Translations under genes and position numbers: made by a program
In this document: in pieces, positions 1-61,440 of the stretch
Layout: the number at the start of each line of letters is the position of its first letter
Position numbering within the stretch: the first letter of the stretch is position 1
The notes under the pieces: model-generated
The model's input: the letters and a program-made list of their open reading frames with translations, nothing else
What the model was told of the DNA's origin: nothing
The model's database searches: none
NCBI GenBank assembly: GCA_030018415.1
Contig: JASEGC010000001.1
Coordinates: 323,067-387,066 of the forward strand
Source of the DNA: Candidatus Aenigmatarchaeota archaeon
GTDB taxonomy: Archaea; Aenigmatarchaeota; Aenigmatarchaeia; CG10238-14
Direction: 5' to 3'
Length of the DNA: 64,000 nt

Positions 1-227
1 TTATCAAAACTAAAAAGGATGAAATTATAAAGAAGTTTAGACCGAATCCAATCACTTTTAACAAAATACCTAACAAACCAATTATTACAAAAGAAAGAAA
101 AAAAGAGATAGAAATCGTCTCTAAAAAGCTTCTTTTTATTCTTAGAAGAATTGTCAAGAATAGGCCAGGAACAATGAAAATAAAGGGGATCAAGATCAAT
201 GTAACAATATAATTTGCAATCATCTCA

Positions 228-48743: not shown

Positions 48744-49286
48744 CTACAAAGTCAAACGTTTAATACCATAATATGTAACGCATGATTCACCATCAACAAC
48801 TGCCCAGATCATCTCACTCCTAATGTTTTGTGCAAGCCTAACAGCTCTTGATAATTCTGGAAAGGAACAAGAAAATTCTTCAGGAATTGCATGAGCAACG
48901 AATTTTGTGTGCTCAAAGGCGGCTTTAGGTCCTTTCTTTAATTTAACTCCCCTCTCGTAAATTCTAAAATCTGTCCCGAATTTAAACCCAGTCTTTACGA
49001 GAAAACCCCTATCTCTCAAGTCAGTATAAACAACCAATCTTGCATGAAAGTTTCTCTCGTTTTTGACACAATACTCATACAATTCCTCTTTCGATAATTT
49101 TTTTTTCTCATTTTCTTCTTTAACAAAAACGGCTAATTTTCCTTTATTGAACAGAAACATTGCTTCTACTAAGGTTAACTCAAGTCTATCCTCTAAAACT
49201 TTCCCGTATCCAGATTCTTCTAACTCACTAAATGCTTCTTTATCCCAAATGATCACACGCTGTTCTAACAACTCTCCTTCTAACAT
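48744..49286 (-). CDS. endA: tRNA-splicing endonuclease catalytic subunit (about 180-aa alpha-type)
   Basis: 'LRDRGFLVKTGFKFGTDFRIYERG...HTKFVAHAIPEEF' catalytic-domain signature; 180 aa. Confidence 0.8.
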   Translation of the reverse strand: MLEGELLEQRVIIWDKEAFSELEESGYGKVLEDRLELTLVEAMFLFNKGKLAVFVKEENEKKKLSKEELYEYCVKNERNFHARLVVYTDLRDRGFLVKTGFKFGTDFRIYERGVKLKKGPKAAFEHTKFVAHAIPEEFSCSFPELSRAVRLAQNIRSEMIWAVVDGESCVTYYGIKRLTL

Positions 49287-49376
49287 AATGTCCTCTATAA
49301 TCTATTGCTAATTCATTGATAAATTTAAATTTTTATCTTAAACTTCACCAACACTATGTAAAAAGTATTCTGCAGA

Positions 49377-49802
49377 CTATTTACCTACGTGTTTGAATCT
49401 TTTAACTAATTCGTTTATTCTTTTTTCTAACGATTCATTTTTCAATTTCTCTAAAAACTTCTTAAAAGATTCATATTCCTCAACAATTTTTTCAAACTGT
49501 TTAGAATTGTTAATGATAGCCTTAATCTTTCTTTCATTCCTTATCACATTCGGATTTTTTAGCAATAATTTCACATCCTTTGATTTTAACTCTACAATTT
49601 CATTTATCGAAAAATTGTGAAAAGCTTCTTTTATCTTTGGCCACTTCTTCCTGACCAAGCTCCAACTTAATCCGGATTGGAGGATTGTCAATGAAAGGAT
49701 TTCGAAGTATTCATCATCGCTAGAAGGCCCTTTCCCTGGCTTACAAACGTTAGAATCCTCTTTTGCATAAGTACATTCCCAAGGAGCGGTATGAACTTTC
49801 AT
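49377..49802 (-). CDS. DNA-3-methyladenine glycosylase I (Tag)-like protein
   Basis: 'YFEILSLTILQSGLSWSLVRKKWPKIKEAFHNFSINEIVEL' matches the Adenine_glyco pattern. Start set at the ATG (49802-49800) that overlaps the archaemetzincin TGA; the longer ORF start at 49889 is an alternative. C-terminal zinc ligands of E. coli Tag are not obvious. Confidence 0.5.
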   Translation of the reverse strand: MKVHTAPWECTYAKEDSNVCKPGKGPSSDDEYFEILSLTILQSGLSWSLVRKKWPKIKEAFHNFSINEIVELKSKDVKLLLKNPNVIRNERKIKAIINNSKQFEKIVEEYESFKKFLEKLKNESLEKRINELVKRFKHVGK

Positions 49803-50257
49803 AATCCTAATTGTAGTTTGCACATATAGCATAAATACTTTGTTTTCTTGTCTACATCCCCGACTGTGCTTGAAAAAGTCATTACACATCCTCTCTTATT
49901 GCAATGACCTAATCCGAGAGTATGACCGATTTCATGGATGCATTCTTTTATCGTCCTCTCCTCCACTAATTCTTTATCTTCAGGTTGATGCCAGAAAGTA
50001 GGGTCGAGTCTAGCTATAGATACGACAGAAACTCTTCCTTTCATCTTGGCTTGACCGAAAACGAAATTTAATCCTTCTGTATATAAATCTTCTTTCGTTA
50101 TACCCAATATTCTACCTTCAAAATTTCTCTCAAGAAATTCCAATACTTGATCGGAACGGTACTGATTTCTCAATTGATTAAAGGCAGATTTAGGTATTTT
50201 TTCTACTTGACTTATCTCACTGACCATTCGAAAAGTTGACTTTAACTCTTCTGCCAC
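49799..50257 (-). CDS. amzA: Archaemetzincin (zinc metalloprotease)
   Basis: 'ECIHEIGHTLGLGHCNKRGCVM' HExxHxxGxxH plus C-terminal CxxC. Confidence 0.85.
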   Translation of the reverse strand: MAEELKSTFRMVSEISQVEKIPKSAFNQLRNQYRSDQVLEFLERNFEGRILGITKEDLYTEGLNFVFGQAKMKGRVSVVSIARLDPTFWHQPEDKELVEERTIKECIHEIGHTLGLGHCNKRGCVMTFSSTVGDVDKKTKYLCYMCKLQLGL

Positions 50258-50358
50258 TTTTTCTAGAATTTCTTTTTGGACTTCACCTAAGGGGATTATC
50301 TTCAGTCTAATGCTTTACACCTAACTAATTTTAGGATTTTTAAAATAAAGAAACTTAT

Positions 50359-50526
50359 GGGAAGGGCGTGAATTTCAGGTTAATACCTTTTGAACACGCG
50401 ACATCTTAACCCTGCTTTTGGCAGTGCGGTCTTCAGCTTCGCCAGATGAGATCTTCGTGCGCTTACGAGAGACCTCTCCCGGACTGAGCTACCTATATGG
50501 CAATAGTTCCCATGGTTTACCTTCCC
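50359..50526 (-). ncRNA. Candidate structured ncRNA of unresolved class (GC-rich element with 7-bp terminal helix)
   Basis: 168-nt GC-rich island in AT-rich, non-coding DNA; ends 'GGGAAGG' (50359-50365) and 'CCTTCCC' (50520-50526) are perfectly complementary; internal hairpins (GAGAGGTCTCTC, GCGTG/CACGC), an 'AGTCCGGG' motif, and a C-box-like 'AGATGAGA' with a 'CTGA' 40 nt downstream. I could not fit a tRNA cloverleaf, 5S, SRP or RNase P model by eye; strand uncertain. Confidence 0.3.
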
Positions 50527-50555
50527 ATTAACTAACTTATTATGAATAAAGTTCT

Positions 50556-51239
50556 TTAAATTTTACTCAACCTATACTTAATTCCTTCTATGATGATAAA
50601 GATTAAAATCCCAAAAAACATCCTTGTAAAGTGAGAGACACGTCCTTTTCTGTATTTTACGCTTACTGGAATTTGCTTAATCTTTATCTCATTCCGTATC
50701 GCATCTCCAAGCATGGCATTTTCAATGATGTATCCTCCACGAACTCTCCCGATTTTTTTAATAGCTTTTCTAGTTAAGCCAATGTAACCGCAATTAGTGT
50801 CTTTTAAATTTGTGTTAAAAAAGAGATTGAAAAGGATCCTCCAGACAAAATTCCCCATGGCATTCGCATAAGGAACCTTCTTCCAATTTCTATATCCCAT
50901 AACAAATTCTGCTTTTTTTTCCTGCAACGGTTTAACGATTTTAACTATTTCATCGATGTAATATTGTCTATCAGTGTCAGCGACAACGACTATATCAACT
51001 TCTGGATGTTGTTTAAGAAAGTACTCAAAACCGGTATTCAAAGCATCGCCTTTACCTTTGTTTATTTCATGTCTTAGGACTGTAACTCCAGCTTGCCTTG
51101 CTAGTTCATTCGTCCTATCAGTAGAACCGTCATCGACTACTAATATCTCAGAATTAGGGAGATACTTCTTCACGTCTTTTATGACTGTTCGGATGTTTTT
51201 TTCTTCGTTGTAAGCGGGTAATAAAACTCCTATCTTCAT
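50556..51239 (-). CDS. GT2 dolichyl/polyprenyl-phosphate glycosyltransferase (AglJ/DPM1-like) with C-terminal TM helix
   Basis: 'KIGVLLPAYNEEKNI...ILVVDDGSTDRT...VVADTDRQY', C-terminal 'MFFGILIFIIIEG'; start moved to the internal ATG at 51239, which overlaps the upstream ORF stop (ATGA). Confidence 0.7.
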   Translation of the reverse strand: MKIGVLLPAYNEEKNIRTVIKDVKKYLPNSEILVVDDGSTDRTNELARQAGVTVLRHEINKGKGDALNTGFEYFLKQHPEVDIVVVADTDRQYYIDEIVKIVKPLQEKKAEFVMGYRNWKKVPYANAMGNFVWRILFNLFFNTNLKDTNCGYIGLTRKAIKKIGRVRGGYIIENAMLGDAIRNEIKIKQIPVSVKYRKGRVSHFTRMFFGILIFIIIEGIKYRLSKI

Positions 51240-51748
51240 CTTTTCACTTTGATATTCGAAATTTTTTTCAAGTTTTCCACCATCTTCAAGTATAAAATTT
51301 TGCTTATTTTCTCGCATGCATAACTGTAATGCTTCGTTACCTTATCACCAGGCTTCACGTTGACAAAATCGATCTTCAACTTTATATAATCATCAAAAAA
51401 CTCTGATTTCACGGTTGCGTTGTCTTTATCTATCAACAAAACTTCACAAGGAATTATCATACATTCTTTCAAGAGTTTTTCATCGAGAATCTGGGATTTT
51501 TTCGACATAAGAATCTTATTATGTTCGAACCTCCAGTATCTTCTAACTGCTTGTATGTTTGTAATCGATTCGACGAAATTCATAGCACGCCAAAAAATAC
51601 TTTCTATTTTCTCTAGAGGTAAGTATAGTTTTTCATCTTTGGCTGATTTGTAAAGTAATTTATGTTCTTTTTGGGTAATCTCTTTCCTTGACATAAGAAC
51701 AAACGAACATGGAAATGCGTACTTTAGAAAAAAAATTTCTGGTTTCAT
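51236..51748 (-). CDS. Hypothetical protein
   Basis: 170-aa ORF translationally coupled to the downstream GT2 gene; no motifs recognised. Confidence 0.35.
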   Translation of the reverse strand: MKPEIFFLKYAFPCSFVLMSRKEITQKEHKLLYKSAKDEKLYLPLEKIESIFWRAMNFVESITNIQAVRRYWRFEHNKILMSKKSQILDEKLLKECMIIPCEVLLIDKDNATVKSEFFDDYIKLKIDFVNVKPGDKVTKHYSYACEKISKILYLKMVENLKKISNIKVKR

Positions 51749-58109: not shown

Positions 58110-58235
58110 TGCAGGGACTGGGATTTGAACCCAGGAACTCAATTCTCCAAGATTCATTATATCTTTGTCTAAGAGACAGGATACCTTAACTCATTCTTAA
58201 GTCCTGCGCCTTTGACCAGACTTGGCAACCCCTGC
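58110..58235 (-). tRNA. tRNA-Leu (anticodon UAA) with two predicted introns (13 nt after position 37; 27 nt in the variable arm)
   Basis: Same acceptor/D/T architecture as the CAG isoacceptor. Anticodon arm CAGGA-CTTAAGA...TCCTG is interrupted by 'ATGAGTTAAGGTA'. Variable arm TCTCTTAG...TGAGTTC is interrupted by 'ACAAAGATATAATGAATCTTGGAGAAT'. Mature length after removal is 86 nt, equal to the CAG isoacceptor. Confidence 0.65.
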
Positions 58236-61326: not shown

Positions 61327-61440
61327 TGGACCGGCAGGGATTTGAACCCTGAGCCTCTTCATTGCAGCTTGAAGCTCATGCCTTTTCCGCTGAACTAAGG
61401 AAGCGATCTTGGCATCATTCTACCATTGATCTACCGGCCC
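61327..61440 (-). tRNA. tRNA-Ala (anticodon UGC) with two predicted non-canonical introns (12 nt in D arm; 30 nt at about 33/34)
   Basis: Acceptor GGGCCGG/CCGGTCC with G3:U70 wobble (Ala identity element) and discriminator A; T arm CAGGG-TTCAAAT-CCCTG. Removing 'ATGATGCCAAGA' restores D arm GATC-AATGGTA-GATC. Removing 'AGTTCAGCGGAAAAGGCATGAGCTTCAAGC' gives anticodon arm CTTCC-TTTGCAA-TGAAG and variable loop AGGCT, for a 72-nt mature tRNA. Exact splice positions ambiguous. Confidence 0.55.

Follow-up and report, generated by a model that had tools for sequence, protein, structure and literature searches.

A candidate tRNA-Phe(GAA) gene with five short introns in a Candidatus Aenigmatarchaeota genome

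A GC-rich element between two protein-coding genes

What does a short, GC-rich, seemingly non-coding gap encode in the genome of a Candidatus Aenigmatarchaeota archaeon? The 168-nt segment 50359-50526 of the window (the whole 64,000-nt stretch analysed here) has a GC content of 50.6%, compared with 34.2% across the window, and the 150-nt GC profile reaches its maximum of 0.49 at the element vs ~0.30-0.35 in the flanks. The neighbours on its two sides are:

49799-50257, minus strand: ORF for Peptidase_M54 (archaemetzincin)
50556-51317, minus strand: ORF for a GT2 protein

The archaemetzincin ORF gave no match in an exact-protein look-up, probably owing to a differing called start codon. An earlier note on this DNA had reported the GC jump in the gap between these genes, exactly complementary segment ends (GGGAAGG/CCTTCCC) and internal hairpins; the jump is real, both flanking ORFs were found, the ends form a perfect 7-bp helix and the hairpins are in the sequence. 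Folding of the minus strand gave -61.1 kcal/mol (z = -3.97), with none of 200 shuffles equally stable, and the plus strand reached a z of only -1.65. By inspection the note had matched the element to no tRNA cloverleaf and to none of 5S, SRP and RNase P RNA, and the Rfam scan returned nothing at gathering score and no credible match: three weak matches at E<=10, at 9.7-18.5 bits (gathering scores 60-150).

The best reading of these data, which we hold with considerable confidence, is that the element encodes tRNA-Phe(GAA), on the minus strand from 50526 to 50358, in a gene broken up by five short bulge-helix-bulge (BHB) introns. The coordinates are thereby corrected, the functional unit being on the minus strand and including the discriminator base at 50358. 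Among the candidates listed earlier, the unusual tRNA has survived, and the split or permuted tRNA, the C/D-box sRNA and the novel RNA have not. The cloverleaf had escaped the first reading because the gene lies on the opposite strand and introns account for 95 of its 169 nt.

Gene architecture and the spliced product

The proposed parts of the gene are given below in the direction of transcription; element position n corresponds to window position 50527-n.

50527-50560, minus strand: AT-rich spacer with TATA-like stretches, from the GT2 stop codon to the gene; presumed promoter and short leader
50358-50526, minus strand: whole tRNA-Phe(GAA) gene, 169 nt including discriminator A73 (50358), CCA not encoded
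50523-50526, minus strand: exon 1, 4 nt, GGGA, tRNA positions 1-4, collinear with the 5' end of intronless orthologues
50495-50522, minus strand: intron 1, 28 nt, AGGTAAACCATGGGAACTATTGCCATAT, position 4/5, placed by its BHB and by relatives; central helix ATGG/CCAT (4/4 paired), bulges GAA and ATA
50476-50494, minus strand: exon 2, 19 nt, positions 5-22; remaining acceptor strand, U8 A9, 5' strand of the D stem, D loop AGTCCGGGA, G22
50464-50475, minus strand: intron 2, 12 nt, AGGTCTCTCGTA, interrupting the D stem at position 22/23; CGGG/CTCG as central helix (4/4), AGA and TAA as bulges
50456-50463, minus strand: exon 3, 8-nt micro-exon AGCGCACG, positions 23-30
50438-50455, minus strand: intron 3, 18 nt, AAGATCTCATCTGGCGAA, interrupting the anticodon stem at position 30/31; CGCA/GGCG as central helix (3/4), CGA and AAG as bulges, outer helices 2 and 4 bp long
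50426-50437, minus strand: exon 4, 12 nt, positions 31-42; anticodon loop CTGAAGA, anticodon GAA at 50432-50434
50406-50425, minus strand: intron 4, 20 nt, ACTGCCAAAAGCAGGGTTAA, position 42/43; GACC/GGTT as central helix (4/4), GCA and AAG as bulges, CTGC/GCAG as inner helix
50389-50405, minus strand: exon 5, 17 nt, covering positions 43-59, with G43, the variable loop ATGTC, the T-stem strand GCGTG and TTCAAA of the T loop
50372-50388, minus strand: intron 5, 17 nt, AGGTATTAACCTGAAAT, position 59/60 in the T loop, canonical hBHBh' motif; TTCA/TGAA as central helix (4/4), AAA and ATT as bulges, outer helices 5 and 3 bp long
50358-50371, minus strand: exon 6, 14 nt, covering positions 60-73, with T60, the T-stem strand CACGC, the acceptor strand CCTTCCC and A73
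50342-50353, minus strand: T-rich tract TTTCTTTATTTT, 4 nt past the gene, likely an archaeal transcription stop by sequence reading

The GC content of the exons is 62% and that of the introns 41%. Removal of the five segments in silico leaves 74 nt, which ARAGORN calls as tRNA-Phe(gaa) with a standard cloverleaf, comprising an acceptor stem of 7 bp, a D stem of 4 bp, an anticodon stem of 5 bp with a 7-nt loop and a T stem of 5 bp with a 7-nt loop; the last of these, TTCAAAT, is restored by the removal of intron 5. A single mismatch is left, A28-C42 in the anticodon stem, and it is also found in an intronless orthologue (L147). The nucleotides conserved for tertiary structure (U8, A14, G18 G19, U33, G53, T54 Psi55 C56, A58 and C61) are all there, as T8, A14, G18 G19 in the D loop, T33 and G53-TTCAAAT-C61. 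Phenylalanine identity in Archaea and Eukarya depends on the anticodon GAA, G20 and A73, and this set is complete, with G20 in the D loop. The unspliced gene, on the other hand, is invisible to the same tools: the Rfam tRNA model RF00005 gave no match at gathering score or at E<=10, and ARAGORN made no call, intron options included.

The archaeal BHB consists of two opposite 3-nt bulges separated by a 4-bp helix, and is cut after the second base of the bulge. At all five introns the junctions are fixed by homology, the 3-nt bulges are in register and each junction falls two bases into its bulge. Introns 1 and 2 are of the relaxed bulge-helix-loop type, and intron 5 is fully canonical. The weak points are an A-G mismatch in the central helix of intron 3 and the outer helices of intron 2, which are just 1 bp long. 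The 5' cut site of intron 1 is ambiguous because ATGGGAA occurs twice, so that the first or the second copy could be used, and the bases at -2 and -1 (AT) upstream of the gene are able to join its BHB. As an alternative, only 50495-50507 (13 nt) would be excised and 50512-50526 would form a 15-nt 5' leader; both routes lead to the same mature tRNA. The upstream flank ..TTGAT|GGG is common to exon 1 and the intronless orthologues, and the spacer as a whole is collinear with theirs.

Nearest-neighbour folding of the full-length precursor treats the five motifs unequally. For intron 1 (second copy) and intron 4 the motifs have base-pair probabilities of 0.54-0.93 (0.66-0.93 for intron 4), compared with at most 0.05 for the central helix of intron 5 and values near 0 for the BHBs of introns 2 and 3. 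A competing long helix (element positions 45-49/81-85, 51-57/73-79 and 59-62/69-72) is ~18 kcal/mol more stable. The intron-2 motif reaches a probability of 0.9 in a nascent 66-nt transcript, and introns 2 and 3 probably depend on folding that is ordered or takes place during transcription. The folding result is further mitigated by the arrangement of these two introns being kept in two relatives (L004 and L036).

A homology-free search, in which BHB-compatible deletions were passed through a cloverleaf filter, recovers the same product. It also found some 'solution' in 21 of 51 interior-shuffled sequences and is thus unspecific, so the case rests on the orthologues instead. A two-intron solution was sought in the middle region and none was found. 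One other assignment was tried and rejected: a tRNA-Thr(CGU) built on the minus-strand arm GGTCT-CTCGTAA-AGACC with a 30-nt canonical intron has a D arm 3 nt short, no BHB fits it, and the orthologues place the anticodon loop at CTGAAGA. Elsewhere in the window, 61327-61440 may hold a second hidden tRNA, for which no clear anticodon region was found.

Orthologues and rival explanations

In related Ca. Aenigmatarchaeota (DPANN) genomes, the orthologous slot has the order GT2 - tRNA - archaemetzincin - EndA, or lies directly upstream of EndA, and it holds tRNA-Phe. Intron numbers differ among these loci: none in L006, L144/145, L146, L147/148 and L149; one in L143 and L139/140; two in L004, L005, L137/138, L141, L007 and L008; and three in L036. 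Four or five introns were found in none of the ~17 related loci examined; the present gene shares its locus and individual introns with relatives carrying 0-3 introns but differs from them in having five. Taken together, introns are present or absent at nine or more positions of this gene. On the Rfam tRNA model the intronless orthologues reach 57-66 bits, and ARAGORN calls them as tRNA-Phe; the Rfam score drops with intron number from there to nothing, and ARAGORN finds only the orthologues with 0-1 introns.

The spliced sequence is identical to L147 and to L146 at 68 of 74 positions each, and to the four intronless genes compared at 64-68 of 74. Positions 8-48 (TAGCTCAGTCCGGGAGAGCGCACGGCTGAAGACCGCGATGTC, 41 nt) are identical to L147 across the junctions of introns 2, 3 and 4. 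Every intron, or one at its site, was also found independently in other samples. Intron 1 recurs as an identical insert in L143, and L139/L140 have a 36-nt variant of it; these loci and L146 have the same mature sequence, and L146 is without the insert. L004 and L036 have homologues of intron 2, of 13 and 12 nt respectively, and in both the exon 3 octamer lies between the same two introns; the octamer is contiguous in the intronless L147 and L144. An intron at position 30/31 ending in GCGAA|G was found in L004, L036, L005 and nine metagenome contigs, the ending being GGCGAA in all except L005; the contigs have a higher G+C and different tRNA-Phe sequences, and their inner helices vary but are all paired by reading. 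The pattern used for the metagenome scan, GCGAAGCTGAAGACCG, was too generic, giving 120 matches that were mostly unrelated GC-rich coding DNA, with about a dozen tRNA-Phe genes among them, L036 included. Intron 4 is identical in L036 and has a 22-nt version in L008, where the inner helix is CTAG/CTAG vs CTGC/GCAG here, amounting to two compensatory pair changes. At the intron-5 site, L137/138 carry a 17-nt intron with inner helix AGCT/AGCT vs AGGT/ACCT, again compensatory.

Conservation and covariation in relatives, on which the earlier note had made its structured RNA depend, are both present. Across 12 sequences, spliced or intronless, the cloverleaf is paired in 98.8% of cells, and 10 of its pairs have changes in both partners; controls slid by 1-3 columns are paired in 37-50% of cells.

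The same data bear on what else the element could be. A decaying pseudogene, in which a former tRNA-Phe has accumulated insertions and goes unprocessed while an intact copy elsewhere supplies the tRNA, would be in keeping with the disfavoured folding of the BHBs of introns 2 and 3 and with the A-C mismatch in the anticodon stem, and the search for other tRNA-Phe genes covered 64 kb of the genome. Yet all 74 exon bases keep the full cloverleaf at the identity to intronless orthologues given above, and the mismatch is shared with one of these. Five inserts exactly in BHB register are not expected of random insertions, the same introns persist across species with compensatory helix changes, and the conserved site beside endA is apparently the single one for tRNA-Phe in every relative examined; we therefore consider decay unlikely. 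Less likely still is a chimeric assembly of intron-bearing strain variants. The source is indeed a metagenome-assembled genome, and relatives with different intron subsets co-occur in nature, but of the genomes compared only this one has the exon sequence with GCGTG/CACGC T stem and GGGAAGG acceptor, and with five introns inside 169 nt, about one short read, a chimera is very improbable. The same 168 nt also occur with 100% identity in a 25-kb Logan contig of SRR23186779 that agrees with the window across this region, although both may have been assembled from one set of reads.

Two further readings are given hardly any weight. A plus-strand C/D-box sRNA, or another novel structured RNA, had been suggested by a C-box-like AGATGAGA at 50444 and a CTGA at 50484, 40 nt apart on the plus strand, together with the terminal helix. 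Both motifs are there, but the first is not a genuine C box. An archaeal C/D-box sRNA has a C box (RUGAUGA) near its 5' end, a D box (CUGA) near its 3' end and a kink-turn, and RTGATGA does not occur within 50359-50526 on either strand. The likeness is superficial: like such an RNA, the element is short, intergenic and richer in GC, and it has a terminal helix and a CTGA. It differs in lacking a C box and an internal Rfam match, and in its strand. The sole Rfam C/D-box match, to snR71 (18.5 bits vs a gathering score of 60), lies outside at 50552-50637, and the plus-strand fold is no better than shuffles. In reverse complement, the first motif is a part of intron 3 (TCTCATCT) and the second belongs to the D loop (GCTCAGTCC), and all homologues are ordinary tRNA-Phe genes on the opposite strand. 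The chances of a split or circularly permuted gene, with pieces joined in trans or after circularization, are similarly slim. Such tRNA genes exist in DPANN and Crenarchaeota (PMC5829648), and the duplicated 5' segment ATGGGAA might be taken as a trace of one, but each exon occurs once and in 5'-to-3' order within one 169-nt unit bounded by the acceptor helix. No exon is missing, and a trans partner is therefore unnecessary.

Proposed processing and its significance

The enzyme that would process an intron-bearing tRNA-Phe precursor is encoded nearby:

48744-49286, minus strand: endA, tRNA-splicing endonuclease, 180 aa, 1.07 kb downstream of the tRNA gene

The protein matches the Pfam families tRNA_int_endo_N (E 3.7e-14) and tRNA_int_endo (E 1.7e-23), and its best solved relative is Methanocaldococcus jannaschii EndA (1a79, E 1.5e-33). 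In the alignment it has a Lys-rich 6-residue insert in common with the enzymes of Nanoarchaeum equitans (3iey) and ARMAN-2 (4fz2), flanked by positions that we take to be the catalytic Tyr and His; the loop reads KLKKGPK. A lysine-rich loop in DPANN EndA has been linked to more disrupted tRNA genes (PMC5829648, PMC3239211).

The combined data suggest a model in which a single precursor would be transcribed from the AT-rich spacer after the GT2 gene. EndA, with a loop of the kind linked in the literature to tolerance of relaxed motifs, would cut at ten sites. Base pairing within the tRNA body would hold the short exons in place, GGGA with the acceptor UCCC and the octamer of exon 3 as part of the D and anticodon stems. 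The exons would then be joined by an RtcB-type ligase, with CCA added later. The duplicated 5' strand (GGGAAGG...ATGGGAA) may serve as a stand-in that holds the 3' acceptor strand for as long as the true 5' end is engaged in the intron-1 BHB, and is then removed as leader. Transcription, cleavage and ligation of the precursor are all deduced from the DNA sequence.

The closest precedents are found in the Thermoproteales (Crenarchaeota; for example Pyrobaculum calidifontis, Thermofilum and Caldivirga), where tRNA genes are likewise spliced in cis and carry several short BHB or relaxed-BHB introns at non-canonical stem and loop positions; closely spaced introns can require ordered removal, and standard finders miss or mis-score such genes (PMC8450103, PMC4033280). 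Archaeal tRNA genes are stated to have 'up to three' introns in the tRNAscan-SE 2.0 paper of 2021 and 'a maximum of three' in a 2014 review (PMC8450103, PMC4033280), and a tRNA gene with more than three was not found in the open-access literature searched, DPANN included. The present gene differs from those of the Thermoproteales, with their published maximum of three, in having five introns, exons of 4 and 8 nt and a DPANN host. The enzymes differ too: an (alpha-beta)2 EndA with a Crenarchaea-specific loop in the Thermoproteales, and here a 180-aa alpha-type subunit with a lysine-rich insert in the C-terminal domain. N. equitans, with split tRNAs, and ARMAN-1/2, with non-canonical introns, belong to the same superphylum and have the EndA 'L3' loop (PMC3239211), with which the insert was aligned here; in N. 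equitans gene halves are trans-spliced, whereas here everything is in cis. Outside the Archaea, nuclear tRNA genes of Cyanidioschyzon merolae have up to three BHB-type introns each, in the D arm, anticodon loop and T loop, and stepwise removal has been shown experimentally, including for a two-intron tRNA-Phe(GAA) (PMC3728597). This organism is a eukaryote with a heterotetrameric endonuclease and three introns at most, and no homology to the introns described here is implied.

It is rather likely that, of all cis-spliced tRNA genes described to date, this is the most fragmented, with five BHB introns in a 74-nt tRNA, all processed by a DPANN alpha-type EndA with a lysine-rich loop, in a lineage that varies at nine or more intron positions. 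Five introns and exons down to 4 and 8 nt would raise the known limit and put the tolerance of EndA and ligase to the test. Multi-intron tRNA genes escape routine annotation, and an essential tRNA would therefore count as missing. For DPANN genomes whose tRNA sets are incomplete, Kaneta et al. (2018) predicted 'unidentified disrupted tRNA genes' (PMC5829648), a suspicion that the present case matches, and genes hidden in this way affect quality criteria based on tRNA counts as well as inferences of host dependence in DPANN. If the reading is correct, the locus would offer a natural system for following tRNA intron gain and loss, in which relatives with 0, 1, 2, 3 or 5 introns in one gene make up a dated series of such events, and L146, L143 and L139, with identical mature sequence with or without an intron, bear directly on the origin of archaeal tRNA introns.

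Reading of the element as a tRNA-Phe gene

The element at 50359-50526 has a GC content of 50.6%, against 34.2% across the window, and lies between the Peptidase_M54 and GT2 ORFs. Its ends are complementary (5' GGGAAGG, 3' CCTTCCC), and the plus strand carries AGATGAGA with CTGA at a distance of 40 nt; the description in the earlier note was accurate. The minus strand folds at -61.1 kcal/mol, far more stably than its shuffles (z = -3.97), which is not the case for the plus strand (z = -1.65). The proposed Rfam check returned nothing at gathering score for the element, with three tRNAs found elsewhere in the window, and at E<=10 the region 50250-50650 gave just three weak matches (9.7-18.5 bits versus gathering scores of 60-150). 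ARAGORN called no tRNA on the unspliced element, with intron options on or off.

The minus-strand sequence is GGGAAGG-TA...TAGCTCAGTCCGGGAGAG...GCGTGTTCAAA...TCACGC-CCTTCCC-A. It contains the acceptor stem, a D arm of textbook form and the T arm of a tRNA, all three split by additional sequence. Alignment of the window sequence to uninterrupted relatives resolved six exons and five inserts (element position n is window position 50527-n).

Exons, element 1-4, 33-51, 64-71, 90-101, 122-138 and 156-169, minus strand, from alignment to orthologues
Introns, element 5-32, 52-63, 72-89, 102-121 and 139-155, minus strand, from alignment to orthologues
endA, window 48744-49286, minus strand, neighbouring ORF for a tRNA-splicing endonuclease

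Splicing in silico yields the 74-mer GGGAAGGTAGCTCAGTCCGGGAGAGCGCACGGCTGAAGACCGCGATGTCGCGTGTTCAAATCACGCCCTTCCCA, which ARAGORN calls as tRNA-Phe(gaa) and which shares 68/74 positions with each of two orthologous loci, L146 and L147. Positions 8-48, spanning three of the five junctions, are exactly those of the intronless L147, where the A28-C42 mismatch of the spliced sequence is also present. Among 12 spliced or intronless orthologues, cloverleaf pairing held in 98.8% of cells, with 10 pairs changed on both sides, compared with 37-50% when the columns were slid by 1-3 as a control. Enumeration of introns without homology was not specific. We are confident, short of certainty, that the element is a five-intron tRNA-Phe gene; the earlier suggestion of an unusual tRNA stands, and those of a C/D box RNA, a split or permuted tRNA and a novel RNA do not.

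Structure and distribution of the introns

[quoted passage not shown] Its features were scored at the junctions fixed by homology.

BHB features of the five introns (junction in tRNA numbering; central helix; bulges; remarks)
Intron 1; 4/5; ATGG/CCAT, 4/4; GAA, ATA; relaxed, bulge-helix-loop
Intron 2; 22/23; CGGG/CTCG, 4/4; AGA, TAA; bulge-helix-loop
Intron 3; 30/31; CGCA/GGCG, 3/4; CGA, AAG; inner helix AGAT/ATCT
Intron 4; 42/43; GACC/GGTT, 4/4; GCA, AAG; inner helix CTGC/GCAG
Intron 5; 59/60; TTCA/TGAA, 4/4; AAA, ATT; outer helices of 5 and 3 bp, fully canonical

Judged by this geometry, the five inserts are predicted BHB introns, and excision of intron 5 in silico regains the T loop TTCAAAT. 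There are two candidate cut sites for intron 1, as ATGGGAA is present both at element -2 to 5 and at 14 to 20. Cutting at the first copy, which lines up with the 5' end of the intronless orthologues, would remove a 28-nt intron from a BHB that lacks outer helices. Cutting at the second would remove 13 nt from a motif whose outer helix is conserved (ACC/GGT here, TACT/GGTA in L139), and the 15-nt leader left behind would have to be trimmed; both routes give an identical tRNA.

A search for relatives of EndA led to contigs of Candidatus Aenigmatarchaeota and archaeal MAGs, in which a tRNA-Phe(GAA) gene occupies the same slot, either immediately upstream of endA or flanked by GT2 and archaemetzincin. 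The GT2 protein of the window shows 100% identity to an NCBI entry from a Ca. Aenigmarchaeota MAG. Uninterrupted copies (L006, L144/145, L146, L147/148 and L149) were called as tRNA-Phe(gaa) by ARAGORN and scored 57-66 bits with the Rfam tRNA model. Each of the five introns was found independently at other loci. L143 has an identical intron 1 and L139/140 a 36-nt variant of it, and the intronless L146 has exactly the mature sequence of these carriers. Introns 2 and 3 are present in L004 and L036, and intron 4 is identical in L036 and a 22-nt form in L008, with the inner helix CTGC/GCAG replaced by CTAG/CTAG. L137/138 has a 17-nt intron at 59/60 with the inner helix AGCT/AGCT instead of AGGT/ACCT. 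Nine metagenome contigs with a higher GC content (0.36-0.57; L026, L035, L041, L047, L061, L075, L082, L134 and L136) have tRNA-Phe(GAA) genes of different sequence that also carry an intron at 30/31, with the conserved 3' end GGCGAA|G. The inner helices of these introns are unrelated in sequence and, in our reading, all paired, and the distribution suggests that the 30/31 site in tRNA-Phe is either ancient or repeatedly used by introns. Family-wide there are at least nine intron positions (4/5, D loop, 22/23, 29/30, 30/31, 37/38, 42/43, variable loop and 59/60), with zero, one, two or three introns per gene, and five in the window gene only.

All five introns start with A and three with AGGT, and AG(G/A)TCTC is common to introns 2 and 3 (window 50438-50482, element 45-89). 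The shared motif, the pairing between introns and the shared starts may point to descent of the introns from a common source, or to a folding intermediate. The intron-1 variant of L139/L140 (L139 3728-3762) has an extra hairpin, AGGGTTCAAACCCT, which resembles a tRNA T arm and may preserve a sign of the insert's origin.

Precursor folding, EndA and proposed processing

Nearest-neighbour folding of the full precursor populated the acceptor stem, the T stem, the second-copy intron-1 motif and the intron-4 motif. The intron-5 central helix had a probability of 0.05, and the intron-2 and intron-3 motifs of ~0. A competing long helix, pairing the D loop and intron 2 with intron 3, is ~18 kcal/mol better and is the dominant feature of the fold predicted for this gene, as it is for L004 and L036. 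In our reading, substitutions in intron 3 of L004 would weaken this helix while retaining the BHB inner helix. The intron-2 motif forms at 0.9 within the first 66 nt, and ordered or co-transcriptional cutting is therefore plausible.

The EndA subunit is of the alpha type and 180 aa long, with the M. jannaschii enzyme 1a79 as its nearest solved relative (E = 1.5e-33). A six-residue lysine-rich insert, YERGVKLKKGPKAAFEH, lies between the presumed catalytic Tyr and His; its alignment to N. equitans 3iey is gapless, and that to ARMAN-2 4fz2 almost gapless. The N. equitans and ARMAN enzymes have a lysine-rich insert at one common site of the C-terminal domain (Fujishima et al. 2011, PMC3239211), and our alignment places the present insert at that site. 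Such an insert ('L3') has been tied to a wide range of substrates and, in DPANN, to a larger number of disrupted tRNA genes (Kaneta et al. 2018, PMC5829648). The tRNA-Phe and endA genes are linked on the same strand in all relatives examined (window 48744-50526; L006, L007, L008, L139, L144, L146 and L147), 77 to ~155 nt apart in L006-L008 and with one or two small genes between them elsewhere.

Processing would probably proceed from a single precursor, starting in the AT-rich 30-nt spacer 3' of the GT2 stop codon and ending at the T tract 50342-50353. EndA would cleave at ten bulges, with the exons kept in place within the tRNA body by base pairing: the GGGA exon pairs with UCCC, and the 8-nt micro-exon has partners in the D stem as well as in the anticodon stem. 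The exons would then be joined by an RtcB-type ligase before CCA addition.

Other probable interrupted tRNA genes and known precedents

What looks like a second hidden tRNA gene lies on the minus strand at window 61327-61440 (GGGCCGG-TA-GATC-AATGGTA-GA[12-nt insert]TC...CAGGG-TTCAAAT-CCCTG-CCGGTCC-A). It carries G3-U70, the alanine identity mark, and its length of 114 nt implies at least two inserts; both ARAGORN and Rfam missed it. Its probable orthologues are the tRNA-Ala genes L006 1337-1430 and L007 2082-2175, each with one anticodon-loop insert, and L036 2178-2249, which has no intron. A class II, Leu-like tRNA (window 58110-58235, minus strand, anticodon loop CTTA...) has two inserts, one of 16 nt within the anticodon loop and another, of ~40 nt, in the variable region. 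It scored only 39.1 bits with Rfam and was missed by ARAGORN, and a similar gene lies at L036 4567-4693. Interruption of tRNA genes seems to be frequent in this genome, which may also hold another tRNA-Phe gene elsewhere.

Multi-intron BHB tRNA genes are known from Thermoproteales and the red alga C. merolae, with a stated maximum of three introns per gene (PMC8450103, PMC4033280, PMC3728597); the present gene has five. No report of a tRNA gene with four or five introns was found in the open-access literature, which does not prove that none exists. For DPANN genomes, the incompleteness of tRNA sets has been taken as a sign of disrupted genes not yet identified (Kaneta et al. 2018, PMC5829648), and the window tRNA-Phe gene is one of these. 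The proposed splicing mechanism is a known one. New features are the extent to which the gene is fragmented, its micro-exons, the lineage of the host and the duplication of the 5' strand.
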